Assembly (NCBI GenBank): GCA_044352465.1
Contig: JBILDU010000066.1
Location: 1-17,715, forward strand
From: Bdellovibrionota bacterium
GTDB lineage: Bacteria > Bdellovibrionota_C > UBA2361
Direction: 5' to 3'
DNA: 17,715 nucleotides
Each line of letters begins with the position of its first letter. Position 1 is the first letter of the stretch. The translations under genes and the position numbers were made by a program. Under the pieces are notes generated by a model. The model was not told where the DNA came from and ran no database searches. It saw nothing but the letters and a program-made list of their open reading frames with translations. Positions 814-17,300 of the stretch are shown here, in pieces.

Positions 814-2318
814 CGAATCCTTCTCGTACCCCTCCATGGTTGCTGGGTGATACGCGGGATCGGCGGATCGAGTCGGCCCGACCGCTCTTGTTCCTCTGTC
901 AAGAACTCGGTCATCTCGCTGAGCTCAAGCGCGTCATGCATCATCTCGAAGCGGTTTTCCCGCGAATCGTCTTGGCGGTTGATGTCGCGCCGAGCAATAG
1001 CCATCGCGCGGGGCTCATCGCTGGATTAAGCGAGTGCCGCGCTCGGGGGGTACACTGTGTCGATCTGGCGGGTCAAAGTTTGGGGCCGGATGGTATCCCG
1101 CTGGGTGATGCTCCGCCTCCGATGCTCGACCCTCGAGTCTTTGAGGCGGCTGGAGCGGCGTTTGCTCCGCTGAGGCGCTCTATTCCCCCCGAGGTCTTTG
1201 CGCATTTGGAGGGTTGTGTCCAAACGATTCTTCAGTGGCAAGCGGTCGCGACGGCGCTCGCGGAGCGGGTCGAACCGGGACTCGTGGTCATGGCCGAGGA
1301 TAGCCTCGAGCATCAGAGTGCTGCTTTCATAAAAGTGTTCCGTGAGCGCGGGGTGCGGACGATCATCGTTCCATTCACGCTACCCTCCCCGATCGAGGTG
1401 GCCGAAGCGAGTTCGCCGATAGTCGTGGGGGATCCGCTGACCTCCTTCATTGCGACTCGATATCCGCATTGGGTGTTTGAGTATAAGGGGGCCAAGCATC
1501 TTCGACTTGGCGTGATAGAGATCTTGGCGCGCGAGTTTCTCGGAGTCGCGCCGCCCCAGCCGTGGGTTTATAACAGCGGGAACGCGGCAGCGATTGCGCT
1601 CGAGAGCCCCGCTATGGGGAGTCTCTACACCGCCTTCGGCTTTCCCCCAGACCAGCTGGCGGTGGTGGGGAGTTCGGTGGATGATATCATGTCTGAGGGG
1701 CTGAAAGAGAAGGCTCCATGGAAGCGGCTCTTATGTGAGGAATTAGGCGCCGATCCGCGGAAGCCGTTGCTTGTTTGGGCGGTGCCCCCCGATCAGTTTC
1801 ATCAGCGCCACCGTTCGGTCCCAGAGTATAGGAGCCACTGTGAAGTGGTTGACTACATCGCGGGAGTGCTCGCCCTATTGTCCTCGACGTATACCGTTGT
1901 GGCGCGTCTCCATCCCCGAACTGCCGAGGCGGAACTTGCTCCGATCTTGGCGGCGCGTGGGGTGTTGCACTCGCGGTGGCCGACTGAACGGTTGGTGCCG
2001 CTGAGCGAACTCTACGTCGCCACAAGTTCAGCGACGTTACGGTGGGCGATTGCGTGTGGAGTGCCGGCGATCAACTACGACCTTTATCAGTATGACTTCA
2101 TGGAGAATCTTAATCAGGTGAGGGGGGTCGTGCGAGTGACTTCGAAACGGGGCTTCACAGAGACGGTACATCGCTTTACCCACGATTCGGAATATCGACG
2201 TAGCCTGGAGAATGCACAGCGCGGCGCTGCTCCTGAGTGGGGGGTGTTGGATGGTCGGAGCGGGGAGCGTCTCAGACAACTCTGCCTCGAACACGCTCGC
2301 GCAGCTCCGCCCAGATAG
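810..2318 (+). CDS. Uncharacterised 502-aa protein with a GT-B-like C-terminal half; candidate CMP-sugar (nonulosonate) transferase
   Basis: ATG at 810 overlaps the upstream TGA (ATGA), so it is preferred over 768. C-terminal motifs VARLHPR, ELYVATSSATLRWAIACGVPAINYD and LDGRSGERL resemble GT-B nucleotide-binding domains of TagF/KpsS/sialyltransferase-like proteins. The function is inferred. Confidence 0.6.
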   Translation: MTNPSRTPPWLLGDTRDRRIESARPLLFLCQELGHLAELKRVMHHLEAVFPRIVLAVDVAPSNSHRAGLIAGLSECRARGVHCVDLAGQSLGPDGIPLGDAPPPMLDPRVFEAAGAAFAPLRRSIPPEVFAHLEGCVQTILQWQAVATALAERVEPGLVVMAEDSLEHQSAAFIKVFRERGVRTIIVPFTLPSPIEVAEASSPIVVGDPLTSFIATRYPHWVFEYKGAKHLRLGVIEILAREFLGVAPPQPWVYNSGNAAAIALESPAMGSLYTAFGFPPDQLAVVGSSVDDIMSEGLKEKAPWKRLLCEELGADPRKPLLVWAVPPDQFHQRHRSVPEYRSHCEVVDYIAGVLALLSSTYTVVARLHPRTAEAELAPILAARGVLHSRWPTERLVPLSELYVATSSATLRWAIACGVPAINYDLYQYDFMENLNQVRGVVRVTSKRGFTETVHRFTHDSEYRRSLENAQRGAAPEWGVLDGRSGERLRQLCLEHARAAPPR

Positions 2319-2389
2319 ATTTTGTCTCCCCCACCGGCTGGGCGGTAGCTATCGGCGTGGACGCTCCTCAAATACCGACTGAGAGGTGA

Positions 2390-2724
2390 CCCCCGCTTGA
2401 CGATGTCGACATGGTGTTACTCAGTGTAGAGTTCGCCCAAGATGATCTCCGCCGCTCGGTGAGCGGAACCGCCATAGAGGATATCCTCGAAACTGACATA
2501 CTCGAGCTCGAGCCACAAATATAGAGCAATGTGCGACTCAACGAGGAGGACGAAAGCGGAGGCACCGTAAGGTTCGAATGTAAGGGTTCGCGCCCCGAGT
2601 CCATGGTACCCGCCTCGCCGGCAGCGCGTCGTAGCAGCTATTCGAGTTTTGGGGCAGAGTTCGTGATAGCGGCCCAGACCCCCCAACAAACGACTAAGAT
2701 ATGGCGCGCTAATGGATGAGGCAT
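2390..2724 (-). pseudogene. speD: S-adenosylmethionine decarboxylase proenzyme (SpeD/SpeH type) pseudogene
   Basis: From ATG 2724: MPHPLARHILVVCWGVWAAITNSAPKLE*LLRRAAGEAGT (TAG 2638-2640). After a frameshift near 2601: LGARTLTFEPYGASAFVLLVESHIALYLWLELEYVSFEDILYGG...YTE*HHVDIVKRG (TAA 2417-2419). Matches the LGRH..., FxPxGxS..ESH...W.E and terminal RG pattern of the family. Confidence 0.8.
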
Positions 2725-2822
2725 AGACACAGGGTGTTCAAAAAGCGCTGAGGTCTCCCCGATAAGCGCGGCGGCTCACCAAACAAGCCCAACAACCGGC
2801 ACGATTGCGGAAAGGAGCCCAG

Positions 2823-3128
2823 TTAAAAAAAGGATCCCAGTTGCGAGTAAGGGCCAAGCTTCGAAAAGTCGATACCCGGGGATACCAACCGACACCGCTG
2901 ACATTCGAGGAGATGCTACCCTCGATCGGAGAGGTAAGGGGGACTGTTTGAGCTCCGGCACAGGGGGCACCGGAATCGCTGCGGTGATTTCTGCACGGCC
3001 CGAAACTTTCGCATGGCTCGGTGGCGATAGCTAAGGCTGTTCTTGAAGAAATCAGGACCCCGCAGTTTTCCGGGATCGAGTCTAAATATCTTTCCGCCTT
3101 TGAAGATGTCTCGCATGGTCGATCTCAT
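2823..3128 (-). pseudogene. N-terminal zinc-ribbon fragment, probably of a class I SAM-dependent methyltransferase
   Basis: Reading through TAG 2916-2918 gives RFRCPLCRSSNSPPYLSDRG*HLLECQRCRLVSP, i.e. CxxC...G(Y)xLxxCxxCxLV, typical of methyltransferase N-termini in glycan loci. The frame ends at TAA 2823-2825 with no SAM-binding motif. Confidence 0.55.
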
Positions 3129-3197
3129 CGTCTCTCGAAGGTTGCCCCGTGTACCGCGGCCCGCGATGTCAGGAGGCCTCCGGATTGCTCTGAAACC

Positions 3198-4421
3198 CTA
3201 GCGTTTATCCGAGTCGGATGCCCAGATCGGGTGCCGTAGTTGCCAGCCGCTCTCCCGCCGTTCCCACAGGTGGGGCGAGCGGAATTGATCGATCCGCGCA
3301 TGAAAATCCGCCTCGCTCGTGTCGATATACTCAAGGAATTCCCGGAAATACTTTTGGGGGAACTCAAGGTCGTATTTACGCACCAGGGCAACGCCTTCTT
3401 CGCGGGAGATCTTACCGTTCCTTATCTCTTGCGCTGCATCATACGAGGCTCGACCGAGGCCGAATTTTATGAGCGTTGTATAGTAATGAAAGGGGTCGAT
3501 TTTATCATCGATGCTGCTGTATTTTGAGTAGCTTCCCTCGGTGCGCTCGGGGTTGGCCTGGAAACCTGTGTGTTCGACGGCGTAGTAGTAGCACTCCTGG
3601 GGATCCCACTTAAGGTAGAATCCGAGGTAGTGAACCTCGATGCCGCATGCCGTGGTATCATCGACCTGCATAGGTAGATACGGCTCGAAATCGGCGAGCC
3701 GCAGACGGTGGTTCGAGATAAGCTCCGGGATCGGCCGTCCCCCGAGTCGCACGTCTTTGGCGCCGTCCACCGCGAAGAATTCCGCGCGCATCCGCGGATC
3801 CTGGTTCTCTTCGACGCGGTTGCCGTACTCTGCTTGATTCTCGCCATACATTACGAGCTTCACGCCGTAACGCGCTGCGAATTTCGGTCCAATCATACGC
3901 TGACCGACGATGAAGGGCTGGAAGGGGTGGAGGAGGTTGTGAAACGCTTCTTTTGTGAGAAGTCGGTGGACCCGGCCGTTGGGGGTGAAGAGGATGTTAT
4001 CGAGTCCTCCCACGTGGATCCAGTTTTGAAAGTTCCGCCAGCCAATATCGGTGTAGAGATGGGGTGCCCACGTCACGGTGAGCGGATTCATTCCGTATTT
4101 GTATTTGAGGACGTGCGCGGTAAAGGCGCTGTCTTTGCCGCCGCTTCCCGGCACGATGACGTCGTACCCGCCGTCGGTACGGCGGAATCGGTCAAGGAGT
4201 CGGAGAAGGTGTTCCTCACGCCCTCGCCAATCGATCGCCTGGTCTTTCTGCTCAGCGTACCGGCACGCTTCACACAGATTCGAATCGTCGAATCGGATGA
4301 CCGATTTCGTATCGGCAGCCGCAGATCTGAACTCAACGGTGGACGAGGGGCGTTGATTGGAGATGACGCACTGACGACAAAATCGGACCTCTGCGGGTAA
4401 GCCGAAATACGTCTCTGTCAT
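3198..4421 (-). CDS. N-acetyl sugar amidotransferase (WbuX/PseA/WbpG-like, PP-loop ATPase)
   Basis: N-terminal FCRQCVISNQRP and CEAC cysteines, PP-loop PGSGGKDS, MYGENQAEYG, YSSIDDKIDPFHYY, KFGLGRASYDAAQEIRNGKISREEG. Adjacent to HisH/HisF paralogues. Confidence 0.92.
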   Translation of the reverse strand: MTETYFGLPAEVRFCRQCVISNQRPSSTVEFRSAAADTKSVIRFDDSNLCEACRYAEQKDQAIDWRGREEHLLRLLDRFRRTDGGYDVIVPGSGGKDSAFTAHVLKYKYGMNPLTVTWAPHLYTDIGWRNFQNWIHVGGLDNILFTPNGRVHRLLTKEAFHNLLHPFQPFIVGQRMIGPKFAARYGVKLVMYGENQAEYGNRVEENQDPRMRAEFFAVDGAKDVRLGGRPIPELISNHRLRLADFEPYLPMQVDDTTACGIEVHYLGFYLKWDPQECYYYAVEHTGFQANPERTEGSYSKYSSIDDKIDPFHYYTTLIKFGLGRASYDAAQEIRNGKISREEGVALVRKYDLEFPQKYFREFLEYIDTSEADFHARIDQFRSPHLWERRESGWQLRHPIWASDSDKR

Positions 4422-4424
4422 AGT

Positions 4425-5045
4425 TCACTCCTGACACCAGTGGTAGAAGTTCCGCAATAAAGCCAACCCCCGAGCGCCGCTCTTCTCGGGATGAAACTGG
4501 ACGCCGACAGCGTGCTCATGCGCCACGGCGGCGACGATCGATTGACGTCCGTACCCTGTTCGCGCGAGCACGATATCTTCGGACCGGGGGACGCATCGAT
4601 ACGAGTGGCAGAAGTAAAATGTAGCATCTACAGCGAGCCCTGCGAAGAGTGGATGTGAGCGCACCGGCTCAATCGGCCGCCAGCCCATGTTGGGGAGCCG
4701 TTGGCCCGGCTCTGGAGAGATCGGCTCGACCGTTCCGGCGCACACGCCGAGGCCGGGGGAGCGTTCACCCTCCAGGCCCCATTCGAAGAGGACTTGCATC
4801 CCGAGGCATATTCCGAGGCTTTTGCCCCCCCGACTCCAAAAACGCTTGAGCGCGTCGATCGTGCTGGGGTGACAGAGTTGCTGACTCGCCACTGAGAACG
4901 CCCCCACTCCCGGTATTACGAGTCCCTGAAATCGCTCGAACGGGTCGTCGGGGCCGATCAGCTCGAGCGATTCGATTCCAGCGGCCGAAAGCGCCGCCAT
5001 GACGCTCCGTAGATTGCCCACTCCGTAGTTAACAACACCTAACAT
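4425..5045 (-). CDS. hisH: HisH-like class I glutamine amidotransferase (glycan-locus paralogue, WbuY-like)
   Basis: NYGVGNLRSV, IPGVGAF, nucleophile motif GICLGMQ, FYFCHSY and QFHPEKS (Cys-His-Glu triad intact). Confidence 0.92.
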   Translation of the reverse strand: MLGVVNYGVGNLRSVMAALSAAGIESLELIGPDDPFERFQGLVIPGVGAFSVASQQLCHPSTIDALKRFWSRGGKSLGICLGMQVLFEWGLEGERSPGLGVCAGTVEPISPEPGQRLPNMGWRPIEPVRSHPLFAGLAVDATFYFCHSYRCVPRSEDIVLARTGYGRQSIVAAVAHEHAVGVQFHPEKSGARGLALLRNFYHWCQE

Positions 5046-5779
5046 GCGCGTTGCTCGTCCCCAACGTGTTGTTTCAAGGCAGCGATCGAGAAGGCGTTGT
5101 AGTGGAGGGCTGAAGCGAGGGCGACGGCCATCGAAGTCGATTCGGCCTGAGCTGCCCTCACGTGATCAATGGTGCCGGCACCGCCGCTTAGCACGACCGG
5201 CACATCGACGGTTGACTCAACGGCGCGCAGGAGATCTAGATCAAAGCCGCGGCGGGTGCCGTCGCGGTCAACGCTCGTGAGGAGTACTTCGCCAGCCCCC
5301 CGCTCCCGTGCCTCACGGCACCATTCGATGACATCTCGTCCCGTTGGGTTCCGACCGTTTTCGATGTATGCTTCCCATGAGCTCTGCCGGCGCTTGGCTT
5401 CGACCGATATGACGCAACATTGGGCTCCGAATCGGCGCGCGACCTCGGAAATGAACTCCGGCCGGCGGATGGCTTCAGAGTTTATGGCCACTTTATCGGC
5501 ACCACACGCGAGGGCTTGCTCGACGTCACCCATCGACCGAATGCCACCACCGACCGTAATCGGAATAAAGACCCCGCGGCAAGCTCGACTGATGATCTCA
5601 AATACGCTGCGGCGGCCGTAGAGTGTAGCTACGGTATCGATCATGAGTAACTCGTCCGCACCGGCGGCGTAGTACTTGATTGCCAGCTCATTCGGGTCGC
5701 CGATCTTGCGTAGTCCTTCGAAGGCGATACCTTTGATGACCGATTCCCCCTTGATATCAAGTCGGGCGATGATGCGCAT
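5039..5779 (-). CDS. hisF: HisF-like cyclase-fold subunit (glycan-locus paralogue, WbuZ-like)
   Basis: RIIARLDIK, PITVGGGIRS, GADKVAINS, GAGEVLLTSVDRDGT, SGGAG. Overlaps the hisH-like start. No other his genes are nearby. Confidence 0.92.
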   Translation of the reverse strand: MRIIARLDIKGESVIKGIAFEGLRKIGDPNELAIKYYAAGADELLMIDTVATLYGRRSVFEIISRACRGVFIPITVGGGIRSMGDVEQALACGADKVAINSEAIRRPEFISEVARRFGAQCCVISVEAKRRQSSWEAYIENGRNPTGRDVIEWCREARERGAGEVLLTSVDRDGTRRGFDLDLLRAVESTVDVPVVLSGGAGTIDHVRAAQAESTSMAVALASALHYNAFSIAALKQHVGDEQRAC

Positions 5780-5794
5780 GTCACCTCCGTCGTC

Positions 5795-6838
5795 CTACCA
5801 GGTAACGTCGGTCCGCGCGAGGTGGGCGCCTTTGGGGATATGTGCGGTGGCCCGACACCCACAGACGCGCTCAAGCTCAGCTGCCGGGATCTCGCCGGTG
5901 CCTGGTCGCATCGGGGCTACATTTTTTTCGGAAAATGGTTGGCCCGGGGCGATATCCTCGAGGGCGACGAGGGTCGCAAAGGCGAATCGAATGGTGGGGG
6001 CCTCCTCTGCCGCCGCCACCTTACGGCCGCCCCGCATCTGGGCGATGAGCGCTGAGCCTTCGATCAATTGGGACAACTCCGTTGGATCCATCGAGCAACT
6101 GACGTCTGGGCCGACGCGGGTCTTGGTATCGACGAAATGACGCTCCAGGATCGATGCTCCGAGCGCGGTTGCCGCCAAGCAGGCGTGATTTGAGGTCGTA
6201 TGGTCGGACAATCCAACGACAAGGTTAGGGAAGGTGTCGCGGAGCTCCTCCATGGCGCCGAGGCGGACCAGATGGAAGGGGGTGGGATAGATATTCGTCG
6301 TATGTAAGAGCGCCAGCGGAACACCATACGCCGAGATCGCTGCAACCGAGGCACGCACGGAGGCTAGGTCGTTCATCCCGGTACTCAAGATCATCGGCTT
6401 TCCCTTGGAGGCGATGTATTTGAGTAAGGGGATATTATTGCACTCTCCGGAGCCGACCTTGTAGGCTTCGACGCCCATGCGCTCCAAACGATCGACCGCT
6501 GAGCGAGAGAACGGCGTACTGAGGAATATCAGTCCGAGGCTCTCAGCGTATGTTTTCATCTCAAATTCGTCGTCCTCGCTAAGCGCCGCATTCGAAATAA
6601 CGTCGTAGATCGAGATATCGGCGTTCCCGGGGAGAACCTTTTTGGCGGCGTCGCTCATCTCGTCGGTGATTGCGTGGGTCTGATGTTTTACCAGCTCAGC
6701 GCCGGCGCGCCAGGCAGCTTCAACCATCGCCTTGGCGACGCTTAGGTTGCCACCGTGATTAATGCCGATCTCCGGGATAACGAGCGGGGGAAATTCGGGG
6801 CCGATTTCTCGAGTGCCGATTGAGAAGCGCGGGGCCAT
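5795..6838 (-). CDS. neuB: N-acetylneuraminate synthase with C-terminal SAF/antifreeze-like domain
   Basis: EIGINHGG, VKHQTH, EMSDAAKKVLPGNADISIY, STPFSR, GSGECNN, STGMN, TNIYPTP, GLSDHT, LERHF, RPGTG, all closely resembling Neisseria SiaC. ATG 6838 is chosen because AGAGGA precedes it. Confidence 0.93.
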   Translation of the reverse strand: MAPRFSIGTREIGPEFPPLVIPEIGINHGGNLSVAKAMVEAAWRAGAELVKHQTHAITDEMSDAAKKVLPGNADISIYDVISNAALSEDDEFEMKTYAESLGLIFLSTPFSRSAVDRLERMGVEAYKVGSGECNNIPLLKYIASKGKPMILSTGMNDLASVRASVAAISAYGVPLALLHTTNIYPTPFHLVRLGAMEELRDTFPNLVVGLSDHTTSNHACLAATALGASILERHFVDTKTRVGPDVSCSMDPTELSQLIEGSALIAQMRGGRKVAAAEEAPTIRFAFATLVALEDIAPGQPFSEKNVAPMRPGTGEIPAAELERVCGCRATAHIPKGAHLARTDVTW

Positions 6839-7074
6839 GAGTTCCTCTCTAGACAATACATTTTCCGATCAACGATACAGCAAAAGAAATTACAGCCGCA
6901 TAAACTCAAATTGAATCCGCCGGCCACGGTTGTCGGACGATTCTTGCGTCACGACACCTAGTCACCCAAGAATCGCCGCGTTGACTCTGGGAGCGCTTTT
7001 TGGGGGCGCAGTTGCGCGGGCGAAAACTCGGAACCTCTCAGTTCATCGTAGCTTTAAACCAGCGGATCACACAA

Positions 7075-7803
7075 TCACACATCGAGCGCGTGTGGCGCTT
7101 CGTGGCGCTCGATCGGCACGAACGCTTCGTTCCCGGGCGCCCCCAAAATCGCCTCAGCATGTCGGATATCATCGTGGTTGTCGATATCGACACTGTCTCG
7201 CTCGGTCATTACATAGGCGCGACTTGGCTCAACAACAAAGCGCCGCTCGCGTTCAAAGGCGACAACATCGCAGATATAGATGGCACCGTTTTGTCGAACA
7301 CACAGGGGGAGCCGTTGCCGTGGCATCGAGAGGTAGTCGGAGCCGAACGCGGGAGAGAGCATGTCCCCGGCTAGGGTGAGGCTTTTGTAGGGGTGATGTG
7401 AGAGCTCACAGACGCTGACCACCGAACCGACTGGGCGCTCTCGAAACAGAGTCCATGCCTCGGTAATGTGGTGGCTTGTTCGGAGGGGTGAGGTGGGCTG
7501 AAGGAGAACGAAGGCAGTGGAATCACGAGCACCACGGAGCACATCGACCACGACATCTTCCAAGCGCGCGTCATCGGTTGCGAGTGTGACGGGTCGCTCG
7601 ATGACGCGGACGGGAAAATGGGCGGCGATGCGAGCGACCGCCGGTGAGTCAGTGGTCACCACTATCTCGTCGAAGATGGCGGCAGAGCAGGCAGCTGCAA
7701 GGGTGTACTGTACGAGTGGTACGCCACCGACAGGGGTGGTATTTTTGTGCGGAATACCCTTCGAACCAGCGCGAGCAGGAATGATGCCGAGGAGCTTCGT
7801 CAT
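7075..7803 (-). CDS. neuA: Acylneuraminate cytidylyltransferase (CMP-Neu5Ac synthetase)
   Basis: IIPARAGSKGIPHKN, LLQPTSPLR, RQRLP, QNGAIY, SVDID. The start overlaps the neuC stop. Confidence 0.93.
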   Translation of the reverse strand: MTKLLGIIPARAGSKGIPHKNTTPVGGVPLVQYTLAAACSAAIFDEIVVTTDSPAVARIAAHFPVRVIERPVTLATDDARLEDVVVDVLRGARDSTAFVLLQPTSPLRTSHHITEAWTLFRERPVGSVVSVCELSHHPYKSLTLAGDMLSPAFGSDYLSMPRQRLPLCVRQNGAIYICDVVAFERERRFVVEPSRAYVMTERDSVDIDNHDDIRHAEAILGAPGNEAFVPIERHEAPHALDV

Positions 7804-8996
7804 TGTAACCTTGAGATGTCGATGAACGCTTTCTCCGTTTTGATATTCCAGAGCTCTTGACGTCGGAGAACCTCCATAAATCGCCTCGCACTATTTCCCT
7901 CGCCGAAATGGAGGGTTTTCTGCACGGTCGGCCGGCGCATGGCTGTGTCGATCGCGTTTTGAATTGCGATTGCATTGGGTGAGCAATGGGTAATCGAGGA
8001 GTGATGGAAGCGGCCGGCTTGGCGGTTGCCGATATCGACGCTCGGGACGCCGTACACTGGCGCTTCACGGATTCCCGCGCTGGAGTTTCCGACGAGGAGG
8101 TCCGCGTGCCGGAGGAGGGTCAGAAAGTACTCGAAGCGAATCGACGCAAAAACTCTGAAATTCCTGTTTCCCTCGAAGCGCCGATAGGCGGTGAAGATAT
8201 GCTCTGAGCCTTCGTCGTTGTTGGGGTAAATCACGACGAAACGTCGGCCCGAGGCGATACAGGCATCGACAACAGCCTGAGCGTGTTCGTACGCGTGTTC
8301 GATGTCGGTCGTGACCGGGTGGAAGAGGAGGATTGTGTAGCGGTCAAAGTCGATTGCGTAGTGTCGTTTTACTTCGGCGATGTGCGGAAGCTTATCTGAC
8401 AACATGACATCGATGTCTGGCGAACCGATTTCGAAGACGGAATCAGCTGATTCACCCAGCTGAAGGAGCCGGTCATATGCCTCGGTGTTAGCGACGAAGT
8501 GGAGATGAGACATCTTGCTTACCGCGTGACGAATTGCTCCATCGATCGTACCGGACAGCTCGCCGCCCTCAATGTGGGCGGTGGGAATATTACGGATACT
8601 CCCGACGATCGCGCCGGCGAGTGCCTCGACCCGATCTCCGTGGACGACGAGGAGGTCGGGCGGTAGCTCAGAGATATGTCGGGCGAGGCAAGCGATGGTG
8701 TTTGCAAGGGTCAAGTCCATCGGCTCGGAGAGGTATTGATTGTTGACGACGTGGATATCTTGTACCCCCGATCGGAACACCTCCTCGACGGTGTAGCCGT
8801 ACCGTTTCAGAGTGTGCATGCCGGTGACGAAGATGCGGCAATGAAACCCGGGGTCGGCGTCGACGGCCTGAATGAGGGGCAGGAGCTTCCCGTAGTCTGC
8901 GCGTGTTCCGGTGAGAAAGAGGACGGTGCGTTTGGGCGATTTGTCCGGCATGAGCGTCGGAACAGCTCCTAACCCATGCTTGTGGCTCGCAGTCAT
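7800..8996 (-). CDS. neuC: UDP-N-acetylglucosamine 2-epimerase (hydrolysing)
   Basis: TGTRADYGKL, VTGMH, VHGDRVEALAGA, HIEGGELSGTID, FHPVTT, IYPNND, SIRFEYFLTLL, GNSSAGIREAP, resembling Neisseria SiaA. An alternative start is ATG 8951. Confidence 0.93.
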   Translation of the reverse strand: MTASHKHGLGAVPTLMPDKSPKRTVLFLTGTRADYGKLLPLIQAVDADPGFHCRIFVTGMHTLKRYGYTVEEVFRSGVQDIHVVNNQYLSEPMDLTLANTIACLARHISELPPDLLVVHGDRVEALAGAIVGSIRNIPTAHIEGGELSGTIDGAIRHAVSKMSHLHFVANTEAYDRLLQLGESADSVFEIGSPDIDVMLSDKLPHIAEVKRHYAIDFDRYTILLFHPVTTDIEHAYEHAQAVVDACIASGRRFVVIYPNNDEGSEHIFTAYRRFEGNRNFRVFASIRFEYFLTLLRHADLLVGNSSAGIREAPVYGVPSVDIGNRQAGRFHHSSITHCSPNAIAIQNAIDTAMRRPTVQKTLHFGEGNSARRFMEVLRRQELWNIKTEKAFIDISRLQ

Positions 8997-9292
8997 CGAT
9001 AACCCCCTATCGGCAAACTAGGTTTTTATTAGATGGCCGCTACTCAGCGAGGGATTCCGCTAAATCCCCCCTCCCGCTTTGCCGCTGTACCGGGGCTACT
9101 TTCCCGCTGTTACGAGGCCTCTGTCACTGCACCGAGGCTACGGTTTCACGCGTCGTGCCTGGCAGGCCAGTCCAACTTTGGGCAGAACCAATCATTGCAG
9201 CGGTTTAACCCGCGCTTGTTTCGTAAGCAGAGTCGCCTGATACACCTGTGCGTCGTGAGTGCGAAATCACAACGAGAATGTGGGTATCCGTT

Positions 9293-9736
9293 CTAGCAAC
9301 CCCAAGCGTTTGCGAGCTTCGGCATTGAGGGCGGAAATAACCCCGGGGGAGGGAAACGGTCTTATCCCCCATCCTCCACCGAGCTCAAACCAGGCGATCC
9401 GTATCCATGAGCACTATTAAAGATTCGATGAAGGCGACCCGCACTTGGCGTTTCTGAGAGAGACGCCATGTCCGGCTCCCTTTTCGCTAAGGGCGTTAAA
9501 AAAAATCGAATACCTGTGTGCGGAGCTGGTCCCGACCTAAATACCGGTTTCTTATCACGATGTCTTCGCTCTGCCGCAGGACGCTCGGGGAGTCTGATAC
9601 GCCTGACCAGCCCCTCGTGGACTCTCTGCTGCTCCTCAGGCGATGAGAATCCAAATGCCTCAAGCCATGCATTTGGCTCGAGGGTGAATGCTTGCTATCC
9701 AGTCGATCACTCCAAAATGTCTATGGCTTGCCTGGA
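9293..9736 (-). pseudogene. Degenerate C-terminal half of a probable Y1/RAYT-like tyrosine transposase
   Basis: Stitched translation across about 2 frameshifts and several stops: FTLEPNAWLEAFGFSSPEEQQRVHEGLVRRIR...KKPV/LGRDQLRTQVFDFF*RP*RKGSRTWRLS...RVAFIESL...RWRMGDKTV/PGLFPPSMPKLAN. The family assignment is from recalled similarity only; no HUH motif remains. Confidence 0.5.
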
Positions 9737-12739: not shown

Positions 12740-13684
12740 CTATCGTTCTTTCTTCGAAAGCTCGCTTTTGATCGCGGCAGGATTTCCCCCCACCACGGTA
12801 TAAGCTGGTACGTCCCGAATTACATGGCTACCAGGAAGGACAACAGCACCCTCTCCGATTGTAACCCCCTTGAGAATGGTCGAATTAAAGCCGATCCAAG
12901 CACGATCCTGCACTTTGATCGCGCCTACTCGGACATTACTCCAATCTTTATTCCTGATAAAATCGGTGGGGTGGGCGATCCAATCACGCCCGCACTGAAG
13001 CACGTCATCACAACGTTCTTCCCATACGACTGAGTGGGAGTCGTTATCCATGAATGTAACACTAGCATCAATCACGACATCGTCTCCGATATCGATAGAG
13101 TCAGCAGCGATCAGCAATGCGGCGTCGAGTAATGAGCCCTTGCCGATGCGGATCTGTGCCCCCCGACGAAGAATTGATAAAGCACCAAAAATTCGGCTGT
13201 TATCCCCAATCCTAACGCAGATCGCGGACTGGTGAGGCCGATAGCGCACCTCGCAACTCGATTGCGGAGCAAGATAAACACCACTGCCGATCTCGAGGTA
13301 ATCGGAACACTCGGCCCAGCTGCCACTTAACTCTGGACGATGCGAAGTTGGTTTGCTGGTTCGGGGGCTTGCGGAGAGTAGTGAGCGAATTGCTCGCTCG
13401 GATGCTACGTCGCCGACTGCCGCATATAGAGCGGCAAGGTGAGCTATCGCCTGATCGTTTCGCGGTTCAAGAAGACTCGCGCGACTGCAAAATTGAATTG
13501 CCTCACGTGGATACCCAAGCTCCCTCAGGAGAACTCCGATATTCAGATTAAGTTCGGGATGATAGGGGTCGAGTTGCAGGGCCTGCTGGAGAGCCGAGAG
13601 AGCTGCCTCTGCCTCCCCGGCGGTAAGCAGTTGAACGGCCTTCTCGTGTAGGGCGACGAATTGTTCCCCAGGATCTGCGTTCAT
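12740..13684 (-). CDS. TPR-repeat / hexapeptide (LbH, MAT-like) O-acyltransferase fusion, paralogue A
   Basis: N-terminal TPR helices (ALQQALQLDPYHPELNLNIGVLLRELG; ASLLEPRNDQAIAHLA). C-terminal DNDSHS, AWIGFNSTILKGVTIGEGAVV, DVPAYTVVGGNPA. Confidence 0.85.
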   Translation of the reverse strand: MNADPGEQFVALHEKAVQLLTAGEAEAALSALQQALQLDPYHPELNLNIGVLLRELGYPREAIQFCSRASLLEPRNDQAIAHLAALYAAVGDVASERAIRSLLSASPRTSKPTSHRPELSGSWAECSDYLEIGSGVYLAPQSSCEVRYRPHQSAICVRIGDNSRIFGALSILRRGAQIRIGKGSLLDAALLIAADSIDIGDDVVIDASVTFMDNDSHSVVWEERCDDVLQCGRDWIAHPTDFIRNKDWSNVRVGAIKVQDRAWIGFNSTILKGVTIGEGAVVLPGSHVIRDVPAYTVVGGNPAAIKSELSKKER

Positions 13685-13867: not shown

Positions 13868-14890
13868 GTGTCTGAGCTAAATCACACGGTGGGCTCTTCG
13901 ATCGCTGAGATCAACCAAAAAGCGGTGGCTGCCATGCAGCGTGGGGACCCTTCGACAGCCATAGTGCTTCTTGAAGAGGCGATTACCCTTGATGGTAGTA
14001 ATCCAACCCTCTTGAACAACTTGGCGGTCGTTCTGATTCAAACTAAAAATATTGAGGAAGCATTCAAGGTGCTCGCTCGGGCATATCAGGTGACGCCGGG
14101 TGATCGGACTGTCGCGCTCAATCTCGCCCGTGTGGCGGAGGCTCTTGGGCAGATCGAAGTGGCACACTCGGTAAGTCGAGATTCACTCCATCGATTTCCG
14201 GGGGATCCTGAATTTCTCGGTATTATTGGAGGTGGTGGGGCTGCCGTCAATGCAATCTCCGAACAGCATAAAACCCAACTATCGGGAAGTTGGGCTGCTC
14301 AAGCGGCATATGTTGCTGTCGGACGGAATGTCATTCTTGGTTCGGGCTCCTCGGTCGACATTCGATTCCGTCCTGAGAGTCCGGGGGTGCGAGTCGTTGT
14401 TGGAGATGAATCTCAGATATTTGGAGCGTGCACGGTCCTTAGACCATGTGCGCATATTTCTTTGGGAGCCCGGACTCAATTTGGTGCGAGTAGGATACTC
14501 GCGGCTGAATCAGTTGAAATCGGCGACGATGTTTTGATGGCTTGGAACATCACTATCGTTGATAGCGATCTGCGATCCTTTGATTGGGAGGAGCGTCGGG
14601 CGGACATAGCTCGAGGTGCTCAAACCTTATATTCCCATCCGCATGATCTCGACCGAGGACGTAACTGGGAACGGGTGGGGATCGCCCCGGTGCGAATCGA
14701 AAACAGGGCGTGGATCGGGTTCAATGTGGTGATTTGTAAGGGGGTCACCATCGGCGAAGGGGCAATTATTGGAGCTGGAAGCGTTGTCACCGAGAGTGTC
14801 CCACCATATTGCTTGGCGGCGGGTAATCAGGCCAAGGTGATTAGACAGCTTCCGGTTGCGCTTGATGCCCGCAGTGTCGCGGGGGGGTAG
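13868..14890 (+). CDS. TPR-repeat / hexapeptide (LbH, MAT-like) O-acyltransferase fusion, paralogue B
   Basis: GTG start. TPR helices (EEAITLDGSNPTLLNNLAVVL; RAYQVTPGDRTVALNLA), Gly-rich linker, AWIGFNVVICKGVTIGEGAIIGAGSVV, VPPYCLAAGNQA. Confidence 0.85.
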   Translation: MSELNHTVGSSIAEINQKAVAAMQRGDPSTAIVLLEEAITLDGSNPTLLNNLAVVLIQTKNIEEAFKVLARAYQVTPGDRTVALNLARVAEALGQIEVAHSVSRDSLHRFPGDPEFLGIIGGGGAAVNAISEQHKTQLSGSWAAQAAYVAVGRNVILGSGSSVDIRFRPESPGVRVVVGDESQIFGACTVLRPCAHISLGARTQFGASRILAAESVEIGDDVLMAWNITIVDSDLRSFDWEERRADIARGAQTLYSHPHDLDRGRNWERVGIAPVRIENRAWIGFNVVICKGVTIGEGAIIGAGSVVTESVPPYCLAAGNQAKVIRQLPVALDARSVAGG

Positions 14891-14951: not shown

Positions 14952-15326
14952 TCAGATTCGGCTGGCCACGAGATGCGCGCTGCTTGGAATATTCACGACG
15001 GTTTGTTCGAGCCGTTGAGCGATAGTCAGGGGCATCGCTGGGCACTCGGTATACATGGGGAGTTCGTTCATCAGCCGCCATACGGGCCGACAAAATAGGT
15101 TCGCTTCGTGGCAGCGCTGCAGTATCGGATCGCGGAGTCCGGCCGGAACAAGGATAGCATTCAGCTAGGCGTTACTCATGCTATATTCTGGCTCAGTAAC
15201 GAATCTTACGTCCGCCATATCGGCGAAGGCGTCCCGGTAACGGCAGGCAAGTTGCCTCTTCCGCTGAACTAGCTCATCGAGTTTTTCCAGTTGGGCCACA
15301 CCAAGAGCGGCGGTAAGGTTGGGCAT
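14952..15326 (-). pseudogene. C-terminal fragment of a LegC-like DegT/DnrJ/EryC1/StrS aminotransferase
   Basis: 125 codons absent from the ORF track: MPNLTAALGVAQLEKLDELVQRKRQLACRYRDAF...EPEYSMSNA*LNAIL...RPVWRLMNELPMYTECPAMPLTIAQRLEQTVVNIPSS. TAG 15165-15167 sits at the Trp of SNxWLN. The PLP-binding N-terminal two thirds are missing. Confidence 0.85.
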
Positions 15327-15392
15327 GTGCTGTCAGTTCCATGCGGGGAAGAGTGGACCTATTGGCTTGGCTTGGCTCTGCTCAGGCAGTTT

Positions 15393-16455
15393 CTACGGAT
15401 GTAATCCCGGATGGGAAGCGCCGACCCACTCAAGGGCATTTGAAAGAATGCCCGATGCTTGGAGTTTAGAGATTTTTTCAAGCCGGATGACGTCAACTAT
15501 ACGATCTTGGAGCTCCTTAAAATTACGCGGCCGTGTCGGAATCTGACTCAGAATCTGGTCCAGCCCGCCTGCCAGATCTTCAATAGCGGCGGGAAGAGAG
15601 ACGAGCGGACGATATCGTTCCGCGGCAAGTTCATTGAAAAGATCAAATCCTACTCGATACGAGCGCTTGTCAGGAGGGGCCTCCTTATTGACCGAGATAG
15701 AGACACCAGGAATCCCCCGAGCCACGGCCTCTGCGAGCTCGATCACTCGGTAATTCCATTCATTTGAACCGACGTTGGCTACGACATATGGCATCGCGGG
15801 ATCTCGATGGAGACTCCATTCAAGCGCTCGCGCCATATCGGATACGTGAATGAGCGGGCGCCATGGGGTCCCGTCACTCAGAATAGTGATCTTTTGTTCA
15901 AGCATGGCACGGGTTACAAAGTCGTTGAGGACCAGATCTAATCGCAACCCTGGGGAAGAGCCGCACGCTGTCGCAAAACGTAAACATGAAATCGTAAATT
16001 CGGGTGCCGCGACCCGTTGCAGGGCGCATTCCGTATCATATTTCGAGCGGGCGTAGGCGGTCAGTGGGTTTACAGGTGAAGTCTCGGAGGCAATGCCTTC
16101 AGATTGTCCATAGACACTGCAACTGGAAGCGAATGTGAATCGGGTACATCCTGCCTGCTTTGCAAGCTGTGCCAGTTTCACCGAAGCGCGGTGATTTATC
16201 TCGTCAGTTAAAGTCTCAAATCGATTGCTGATAGGGTCATTCGAGAGCGCAGCCAAATGAATGACGGCATCGAAGCCTCGCAAATCATCCACCGTTATGG
16301 CGCGTACGTCTCCGCCGAGCTTCGGTATCAGAGGAGCGCTCTCCGATGTGGGAACGAAAAGCTCAAGGTCCAATCCTAGAAGACTGAGGTCAGGGGAACA
16401 TCGACGGAGATGAGGGACCCACGTATCTACGGTGGCCGGTGATAAGAACCTTCAC
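15393..16455 (-). pseudogene. NAD-dependent epimerase/dehydratase with a 5' frameshift
   Basis: GTG 16455 overlaps the rfbF stop and reads MKVLITGHRRYVGP, then goes out of frame at about 16413. The body continues HLRRCSPDLSLLGLDLELF...HLAALSNDP, ASSCSVYG, YARSK, LRFATACG, SDGTPWRPLIHV. Confidence 0.78.
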
Positions 16456-17300
16456 TCTTCAACCTTTTGAGTAGTGACGACAGCGGCTTGAATTAACTCA
16501 ACCAACGTTGCTTCGATCGCGGAGAGCGCATCATTCCAAATCTTCCAAGGGGCCTTCCCACTATCCCAGAGGGACTCCAAATACCGTTTATCCCTTAGGG
16601 TATCCATAGGATGCCAAAATCCGGAATGGGTATAAGCTGAGAGGTGCGCCCCTTTTGCGAGTTCAGGCATAACTTGATTCTCAAACGAACAGTCTACTTT
16701 GAGAAAGTCAAAAACCCTTGGGGAGAGGACGATATAGCCACCGTTTATCGTTCCTTGCTCTCCTTGGGGCTTCTCCATGAATTCAGTGACAAGCCGTCCC
16801 TCCATCTTAAGTGCACCAAAGCGCCCTGGGGGTGTGACTGCCGTGAGAGTTGCGATTGTTCCTGAAGTGGAATGAAAGCGGGTGAGGGCCGCGATATCGA
16901 CGTTCGATACTCCGTCTCCGTATGTAAAGTGAAACGGTTCAGTTGGGTCGAGGTATTGCCGAACTTTGAGGAGGCGGCCACCAGTTTCGGTTGTCGAACC
17001 GGTATCGACGAGAGTCACCTTCCATGGTTCCGATCGAACGCGATGGACCATCATCCGATTCGAGCTCAAATCGAAGGTAACATCGCTGGTGTGCATGAAG
17101 TAGTCAGCGAAATACTGCTTGATGACATGACCTTTGTAGCCGCAGCAAATAATGAAGTCATTGACCCCGTAATAGGAGTAGATCTTCATGATATGCCAAA
17201 GGATCGGCTGCCCACCGATCTCAACCATCGGCTTCGGTTTAAGCTCCGTCTCTTCGCTCAAACGTGAACCGAGGCCACCAGCAAGAATGACCGCTTTCAT
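16452..17300 (-). CDS. rfbF: Glucose-1-phosphate cytidylyltransferase
   Basis: MKAVILAGGLGSRLSEET..KPKPMVEIGGQPILWHIMK, VDTG...TGGRL, TYGDGVS, FWHPMDTLRDK, APWKIW. GGAG precedes the ATG. Confidence 0.95.
   Translation of the reverse strand: MKAVILAGGLGSRLSEETELKPKPMVEIGGQPILWHIMKIYSYYGVNDFIICCGYKGHVIKQYFADYFMHTSDVTFDLSSNRMMVHRVRSEPWKVTLVDTGSTTETGGRLLKVRQYLDPTEPFHFTYGDGVSNVDIAALTRFHSTSGTIATLTAVTPPGRFGALKMEGRLVTEFMEKPQGEQGTINGGYIVLSPRVFDFLKVDCSFENQVMPELAKGAHLSAYTHSGFWHPMDTLRDKRYLESLWDSGKAPWKIWNDALSAIEATLVELIQAAVVTTQKVEE

Follow-up and report, generated by a model that had tools for sequence, protein, structure and literature searches.

The locus described here raises a simple question: which sugar is made by a set of sialic acid genes that is followed directly by a glutaminase-amidotransferase trio, and is this sugar itself the substrate of the trio? 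The genes occupy positions 3198-8996 on the minus strand of a 17,715-base stretch of DNA from a Bdellovibrionota bacterium (assembly GCA_044352465.1, contig JBILDU010000066.1), hereafter the window, which is a whole contig (C59) of a 3.13 Mb assembly with 170 contigs and 94.9% completeness. Six full-length open frames lie head to tail in the order neuC, neuA, neuB, hisF-like, hisH-like and a gene for a WbuX-type amidotransferase. The answer favoured here, with about even confidence, is that the six genes form a self-contained and horizontally mobile cassette which would make 5-acetamidino-neuraminic acid (Neu5Am) activated with cytidine monophosphate (CMP), every substrate and product being assigned by homology. 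What would be new is the occurrence of the acetamidino modification, known for nonulosonic acids, on a sialic acid backbone, for and against which the balance appears to be level. A preliminary description, made from the letters alone, had reported the place, intactness and tight spacing of the six genes, and the coordinates, the motifs and the 15-bp distance between neuB and hisF agree with it. Its proposal that CMP-N-acetylneuraminic acid (CMP-Neu5Ac) is converted to a 5-acetamidino neuraminic acid still gives the best-supported reading, although its premise about NeuC was wrong and it had overlooked the lipopolysaccharide (LPS) locus of Legionella.

In the proposed pathway, NeuC would convert uridine diphosphate (UDP)-N-acetylglucosamine (UDP-GlcNAc) to N-acetylmannosamine (ManNAc) by hydrolysis and epimerisation, a SiaC-type NeuB would condense ManNAc with phosphoenolpyruvate (PEP) to give Neu5Ac, and NeuA would activate Neu5Ac to CMP-Neu5Ac. 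The PP-loop amidotransferase would then activate the carbonyl of the 5-N-acetyl group with adenosine triphosphate (ATP), and ammonia derived from glutamine and delivered through the HisH-like/HisF-like pair would take the place of the carbonyl oxygen to form the amidine. Amidation may take place on the CMP-sugar, on the free sugar or on a UDP-sugar. Neu5Am could finally be transferred to a surface glycan by the product of a neighbouring gene with a predicted glycosyltransferase B (GT-B) fold. Unlike Neu5Ac, Neu5Am would carry no net charge because its protonated amidine would sit beside the carboxylate.

The negative charge of sialic acid underlies complement control, Siglec binding and recognition by phages and lectins, and an amidine at C5 would cancel this charge while keeping the shape of the sugar. 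If the proposal is correct, a new natural sialic acid would be defined together with its genes, enzymes for making it would be at hand, and the sugar could be predicted by a genomic rule (a SiaC-type neuB in an operon with hisF, hisH and wbuX and no aminotransferase). There would also be an analytical consequence. According to the SugarBase preprint (10.64898/2026.04.20.719630), the amidine of the putative Neu5Am reverts to Neu5Ac on acid hydrolysis and labelling with 1,2-diamino-4,5-methylenedioxybenzene (DMB). The usual acid and DMB assays would therefore report Neu5Am as Neu5Ac, and some of the 'Neu5Ac' known from environmental and commensal bacteria would really be Neu5Am, if the proposal holds. 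The same preprint mentions, in its part on Campylobacter jejuni, 'peaks consistent with' CMP-Neu5Am and assigns no gene to them there; it was the only source in the literature searched to use the name Neu5Am or one of its spelled-out variants. No structure of an amidinated neuraminic acid was among the matches listed in a wider literature search that combined acetimidoyl with sialic or neuraminic acid.

A similar gene arrangement is known in principle, and the question here is which sugar feeds the cassette. Open reading frames (ORFs) 21-28 of the L. pneumophila LPS locus encode an aminotransferase, NeuD, NeuC, NeuB, NeuA and a PtmG-like N-acetyl sugar amidotransferase (NASAT); as PMC3766260 describes it, the last four genes are co-transcribed and make 5-acetamidino-7-acetamido-legionaminic acid (Leg5Am7Ac), starting from UDP-N,N'-diacetylbacillosamine (UDP-diNAcBac) with the help of the adjacent aminotransferase and NeuD and of a dehydratase encoded outside the locus. 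The likeness to the window lies in having NeuC, NeuB, NeuA and NASAT in one operon, with an acetamidino group at C5 of a sugar of sialic acid configuration. The difference is that the aminotransferase, NeuD and dehydratase of Legionella were not found in this assembly nor in several other genomes with the cassette. Because the Legionella operon with the closest amidotransferase makes Leg5Am7Ac, a Neisseria-like NeuB does not by itself exclude legionaminic acid (Leg).

Other systems resemble the cassette in part. The SiaA/SiaB/SiaC set of N. meningitidis comes close in its synthase, SiaC being about 56% identical to NeuB and having the same contact stretch, and SiaB is the best solved relative of NeuA, whereas SiaA is of a type unrelated to the NeuC of the cassette (36 bits). 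Neisseria is not known to have an amidotransferase trio. NeuD, NeuB, NeuA and NeuC of E. coli K1, taken from strain UTI89, served as the references for true Neu5Ac synthesis; the same three enzyme types in the same order lead to CMP-Neu5Ac there, but the NeuB, NeuC and NeuA of the window are only 32-36% identical to them, the synthase and epimerase of K1 fall with LegI and LegG in the trees, and K1 lacks an amidotransferase. PtmG and PseA of C. jejuni, which make Leg5Am7Ac and 5-acetamido-7-acetamidino-pseudaminic acid (Pse5Ac7Am), are WbuX-family enzymes that turn an N-acetyl group of a CMP-nonulosonate into an acetamidino group, as set out in PMC3766260 and the SugarBase preprint (10.64898/2026.04.20.719630). 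Their substrates differ in being 5,7-diamino-9-deoxy sugars made through LegB/LegC/LegH or PseB/PseC/PseH, and LegI and LegG of such Leg clusters stand in other clades than NeuB and NeuC of the window. The fusaminic acid of Fusobacterium nucleatum ATCC 25586, described in PMC13014188 as 5-acetimidoylamino-3,5,9-trideoxy-non-2-ulosonic acid, occurs naturally and has only one nitrogen, which bears an acetimidoyl group at C5; it differs in being 9-deoxy with a configuration given tentatively as L-glycero-L-gluco, and the likeness is one of composition. Together with the peaks of the preprint, it offers a chemical precedent for Neu5Am.

The neuB gene (ORF 5795-6856) has a probable start at 6838, as indicated by an identical database protein of 347 amino acids. 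Its product matches PF03102 with 232 bits, carries a SAF domain and gives 401 bits and about 56% identity with N. meningitidis SiaC, which bears out the resemblance noted in the preliminary description; meningococcal SiaC is also the only characterised anchor for the cassette enzymes among the references compared. The score on the N-acetylneuraminate synthase model TIGR03569 is 346 bits against a cut-off of 399.65, and that on the PseI model 224 bits against 340. In the NeuB tree, the window and 69 other cassette NeuBs form one clade (SH-aLRT 97), apart from the PseI clade and from the group that contains K1 NeuB and LegI of two complete Leg clusters. Phylogeny, which the preliminary description had suggested as a check, thus places the protein with neither LegI nor PseI. 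As described in PMC7371886, SiaC positions 70-85, the region of C4-C6 specificity, and position 184 separate the synthases of neuraminic (Neu), legionaminic and pseudaminic (Pse) acids, Asn at 184 being the Neu state and not the Leg state. NeuB of the window has VLPGNADISIYDVISN at positions 70-85, matching the SiaC contact stretch, and Asn at 184; the SiaC stretch is reproduced exactly in five cassette NeuBs and the Asn is present in 66 of 70. These features suggest that NeuB is a SiaC-type nonulosonate synthase, which would make Neu5Ac from ManNAc and PEP. The contact stretch is silent on the C9 hydroxyl, since loci that carry a LegB-like dehydratase share it and their NeuBs belong to the same clade. 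For this reason the identity of NeuB was rejected as a sole means of telling Neu from Leg.

NeuC (7800-8996) scores 397 bits on TIGR03568 (cut-off 236) and 244 bits on PF02350, but TIGR03568 also covers enzymes of the LegG type and therefore does not fix the substrate. The claim that NeuC resembles Neisseria SiaA did not survive comparison: the match to SiaA is only 36 bits, and among solved proteins NeuC comes closest to human GNE (200 bits) and Acinetobacter LegG (184 bits). In the NeuC tree, the window is in a 61-member clade (support 96), and a separate group of 12 contains K1 NeuC, the NeuCs that accompany PtmE-like genes and the LegG proteins of complete Leg clusters. NeuC is a hydrolysing UDP-N-acetylhexosamine (UDP-HexNAc) 2-epimerase that would perform the first step, from UDP-GlcNAc to ManNAc. 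NeuA (7075-7803, 242 amino acids) matches CTP_transf_3 (PF02348) with 73 bits; its best solved relative is the CMP-Neu5Ac synthetase SiaB of N. meningitidis, at 166 bits. Its identity to NeuA of E. coli K1 is 36%, and it lacks the C-terminal esterase domain of that protein. Because of the positions of NeuB and NeuC in their trees, the cassette enzymes are neither of the K1 type nor of the Campylobacter type.

The spacing of the genes is operon-like. The neuC and neuA genes overlap by 4 bases, the hisF-like gene starts 15 bases after the neuB stop, the hisF-like and hisH-like genes share 7 bases, and wbuX follows the latter at a distance of 3 bases. The gap of 236 bases between neuA and the probable start of neuB (6839-7074) possibly contains an internal promoter. 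A promoter scan of 2300-9600 found no site of the sigma-70-like consensus, and terminator-like sites were at the level of chance (6 seen vs 6.2 expected).

The amidotransferase (3198-4421) scores 345 bits on TIGR03573 (cut-off 203), and its PP-loop SGGKDS at residue 93 and its cysteine motifs CRQC at 15 and CEAC at 50 are intact; a PP-loop and four cysteines are given as the defining motifs of the WbuX family in PMC10607449. Its best solved match is L. pneumophila NASAT (8WEX), with 526 bits, about 60% identity and the same PP-loop and cysteine motifs. The glutaminase subunit of the WbuY type (4425-5045) scores 183 bits on the hisH model TIGR01855 (cut-off 105) and retains the nucleophile motif GICLG and the His/Glu motif HPE. 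The HisF-like protein of the WbuZ type (5039-5779) stays below the cut-offs, with 261 bits against 299.7 on the WbuZ model TIGR03572, 185 against 310 on AglZ/HisF2 and 272 on the hisF model, also under its own threshold. By analogy with these families, the HisF-like protein would pass ammonia on to the amidotransferase, and WbuX would carry out the ATP-dependent conversion of the 5-N-acetyl to a 5-acetamidino group. The two his-like genes adjoin wbuX in 78 of 80 related loci, and the idea that they are housekeeping histidine genes was rejected on this ground and on the gene content of the assembly. Neither hisD nor any other HisA/HisF-like or HisH-like gene besides the cassette pair was found there; either the his genes are in the missing 5% or the organism is unable to make histidine.

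Since a Neisseria-like NeuB alone cannot separate Neu from Leg, the case for Neu5Am rests on the absence of precursor genes. The preliminary description had seen no fnl, pse or intact leg genes in the window, and this is correct, leg being represented only by the C-terminal part of a LegC-family gene, interrupted by a stop. The genome scan that it had recommended extends the result, as no precursor pathway for N-acetylfucosamine (FucNAc), Leg or Pse was recognised in the rest of the assembly either. Neither of these two outcomes that it had named as refuting its proposal, a NeuB placed with LegI or PseI and an intact pathway for such a sugar, was thus observed. No LegB/PglF dehydratase was recognised (best LegB match 162 bits against a cut-off of 475) and no LegC/PglE aminotransferase was intact (best LegC match 139 bits against 420, besides the window remnant of only 125 residues). 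The Polysacc_synt_2 family, to which PglF, PseB and FnlA belong, gave no strong match (best 81 bits; the FnlA model itself was not run genome-wide). The acetyltransferase model for NeuD, PglD and LegH (TIGR03570) gave no full-length match, only its C-terminal repeat part being matched with at most 63 bits. The sole intact member of the DegT family is a dTDP-sugar transaminase of the WecE type (436 bits) at the end of contig C19. Other sugar genes in the assembly encode RmlB, RmlD, Gmd, mannose-1-phosphate guanylyltransferase, TviB, TviC and two WecB-type epimerases.

The same pattern is found around related cassettes. With each prokaryote species represented by one genome, a scan gave 268 relatives of the amidotransferase, and the best 80 of the 268 (64-71% identity) were taken as loci with up to 10 kb of flank on each side. 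By ORF clustering and by tblastn alike, no more than 16 of the 80 loci have a DegT-family aminotransferase in their flanks, and it is missing from the flanks of 49 of the 62 loci with the NeuC type of the window; an acetyltransferase of the PglD/NeuD type occurs in only two of the 80. Fifty genomes with the cassette, mostly metagenome bins of unstated completeness, were searched as a whole. In 16 of these there is no Polysacc_synt_2 match at 1e-40; 15 of the 16 also lack LegB at 1e-55, and seven of the 16 lack DegT at 1e-30. At loose thresholds, five genomes (G002, G006, G007, G019 and G039) gave a best DegT match of 91 bits that was partial, the others not exceeding 36 bits, and a best Polysacc_synt_2 match of 75 bits. 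G039, which holds the L090 locus of a Rhizorhabdus strain, and G047, which holds the L101 locus of a Sphingomonas strain, are labelled as strains and not as metagenome-assembled genomes.

The six genes stay together over a wide phylogenetic range. All six occur in 70 of the 80 loci, which span 11 phyla; the remaining ten comprise six loci shorter than 8 kb, two with a gene cut by the contig end and two truly without neu genes. NeuC is of the kind in the window in 62 of the 70 six-gene loci (41-55% identity) and LegG-like in eight (about 32%). The neighbours of the cassette are variable and include flagellar genes with Maf glycosyltransferases, ABC exporters, Wzx-type flippases and methyltransferases. 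An amidotransferase of the same subfamily was found in only one of 40 relatives of this genome searched (55% identity) and in none of the four from the same family; the cassette is thus patchy and probably horizontally mobile. Some loci have a complete Leg set (L062, L096) or a Pse set (L029, L083; partly L039, L052, L080) next to the cassette; each such set comes with a synthase of its own, and the amidotransferase trio stays within the SiaC-type cassette.

In a sister form of the cassette, found in L033, L038, L070, L072 and L085 (also in L052 and L062), the same SiaC-type NeuB, NeuA and amidotransferase trio are accompanied by a LegG-like NeuC, a PtmE-like nucleotidyltransferase, a short reductase-like short-chain dehydrogenase/reductase (SDR) and a LegB-like dehydratase, which in L085 scores 449 bits on TIGR04180. 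No aminotransferase was found within 10 kb of it in the first five of these loci. Such genes would be in keeping with a 5-acetamidino-3,5,9-trideoxy nonulosonic acid, and fusaminic acid is reported to have this composition. A broader proposal may be considered, to which we give slightly less than an even chance: a mobile cassette found in at least 11 phyla would make charge-neutral CMP-5-acetamidino-neuraminic acid, some of the 'Neu5Ac' of environmental and commensal bacteria would be Neu5Am, and the sister form, with its LegB-like dehydratase, reductase-like SDR and PtmE-like gene and without an aminotransferase, would make a 9-deoxy version of the fusaminic acid kind.

Several points weigh against Neu5Am, and they have to be considered together with the idea that the cassette makes a Legionella-type sugar, either CMP-5-acetamidino-7-acetamido-legionaminic acid or another 5,7-diamino nonulosonic acid, from UDP-diNAcBac supplied by unassembled, unrecognised or scattered genes. 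We regard this as unlikely, yet it has precedent, in that the closest characterised amidotransferase, which is also the best solved match, belongs to a pathway in which NeuC, NeuB, NeuA and a PtmG-like enzyme make Leg5Am7Ac with a dehydratase encoded elsewhere (PMC3766260). L. pneumophila NeuB and NeuC may fall inside the cassette clades; no Legionella record is present in the best 80 of the 268 amidotransferase relatives, nor among the named matches in the best 120 NeuB relatives or the NeuC relatives. Loci that have a LegB-like dehydratase also contribute NeuBs to the cassette clade, and the sugar-contact stretch is the same in these. LegI and LegF take ManNAc and Neu5Ac in vitro, as reported in PMC6137143, so that the natural substrate cannot be read from sequence similarity. 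Support for Neu5Am comes from sequence comparison, and both NeuB and the HisF-like protein score under their NCBIfam equivalog cut-offs. A dehydratase of the PglF/PseB type (Polysacc_synt_2, 1e-40) is present somewhere in 34 of the 50 cassette genomes, the assembly studied here is in 170 pieces and lacks about 5% of its marker genes, and a LegC-family remnant, 45.6% identical over 125 residues to LegC of the complete Leg cluster in L096, lies in the window only 6 kb from the cassette. Against a Legionella-type sugar stand the failure to find genes of the LegB/PglF, LegC/PglE and PglD types in the assembly and the five cassette genomes with neither a sugar aminotransferase nor such a dehydratase. 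NeuB and NeuC fall outside the clades of LegI and LegG from complete Leg clusters, and such clusters bring their own synthase and epimerase where they adjoin the cassette. The LegC-like fragment contains a stop, belongs to no GlcNAc pathway and is a C-terminal third beside a cytidine diphosphate (CDP)-glucose gene; it was rejected as a sign of a live Leg pathway.

The neu genes could also lead to plain CMP-Neu5Ac, and the trio could modify some other N-acetyl sugar in the glycan that receives it, such as a uronic HexNAc or a 6-deoxy amino sugar. E. coli O145 is an example of this arrangement, WbuXYZ making N-acetimidoyl-L-fucosamine (L-FucNAm) beside Neu5Ac genes. WbuX-family enzymes are described in PMC10607449 as modifying several different sugars, and the present genome does have TviB and TviC of the UDP-N-acetylgalactosaminuronic acid (UDP-GalNAcA) type, the WecE-type aminotransferase and the two WecB epimerases. 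These candidate alternative sugars are encoded on other contigs, however, and no Fnl gene was recognised, the Polysacc_synt_2 search having given no strong match. The trio is fixed beside neuB and neuC in 70 of the 80 loci, while other neighbours vary freely, and its amidotransferase belongs to one subfamily with the Legionella enzyme, which serves a nonulosonic acid of Neu5Ac-like C4-C6 configuration; a second sugar as the substrate thus seems rather improbable. It is more doubtful by far that the cassette is an unused island, recently acquired or left over among gene remnants of a decaying locus. Three remnants in the window (2871-3116, 14955-15332 with its stop, and an N-terminally short SDR at 15393-16373) and the rarity of the amidotransferase among relatives of this genome would suit such a history, but the six genes are open over their full length and spaced as in an operon, and their catalytic motifs are intact. 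Neu5Am remains the reading preferred for the intact cassette, on evidence that we weigh as equal on the two sides.

A candidate for the transfer of the activated sugar is the protein encoded at 810-2318 on the plus strand, convergent with the cassette, which matches no Pfam or NCBIfam family. Its AlphaFold model (mean predicted local distance difference test score, pLDDT, 89.7) has a GT-B fold, and 22 homologues share an invariant His368-Pro369 and a near-invariant Glu163-Asp164. The fold matches are generic, with Z values of about 21 for WecB-type epimerases and 18.5 for TagF and TarL, and the polysialyltransferase 5wcn comes at Foldseek rank 50. Its neighbours in the atlas carry Glyphos_transf, Capsule_synth or DUF6716, each in a minority share. 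A family name for the protein was dropped, as Foldseek and VIA-align both gave generic GT-B matches only.

Some observations concern the surroundings of related cassettes. A polysaccharide pyruvyl transferase family protein (PF04230, 46 bits; 365-410 amino acids) is encoded directly after wbuX or neuA in 27 of the 80 loci, for example at 11218-12369 of L028, and is absent from the window. A Halarcobacter chromosome has two copies of the cassette (L084 and L086) about 1 Mb apart, with identical NeuB and different surroundings. In L028, L030, L054, L055, L075, L099, L037 and L045, several of them gammaproteobacterial, the cassette has flagellar genes (FliD, FliK-like) on one side and Maf-type flagellin glycosyltransferases on the other; in loci with such neighbours flagellin is the probable acceptor of the sugar.

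The right half of the window encodes a GT4 glycosyltransferase, an SDR, two fusions of tetratricopeptide repeats (TPR) with an acetyltransferase, gene remnants and a glucose-1-phosphate cytidylyltransferase. The LegC-family piece (14955-15332, minus strand) is the C-terminal third of the gene and is in two parts around an in-frame stop, with 52 and 47.5 bits on TIGR04181. Directly upstream is the SDR (15393-16373, minus strand), whose frame is too short for the usual N-terminal NAD-binding part, and both are preceded by the cytidylyltransferase gene (16452-17300), which is intact. The whole stretch looks like a decayed CDP-sugar pathway. The TPR-acetyltransferase proteins (12740-13684 on the minus strand and 13868-14890 on the plus strand) are divergently encoded, each with N-terminal TPR repeats and a C-terminal acetyltransferase of hexapeptide repeats, and no counterpart covering at least half of either was found in the 80 related loci. 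On the other side of the window, just downstream of wbuX, positions 2871-3116 on the minus strand match the first 82 residues (39% identity) of a 327-residue protein encoded beside neuB in L095 and are probably a gene remnant; a small ORF resembling S-adenosylmethionine decarboxylase follows at 2417-2689.

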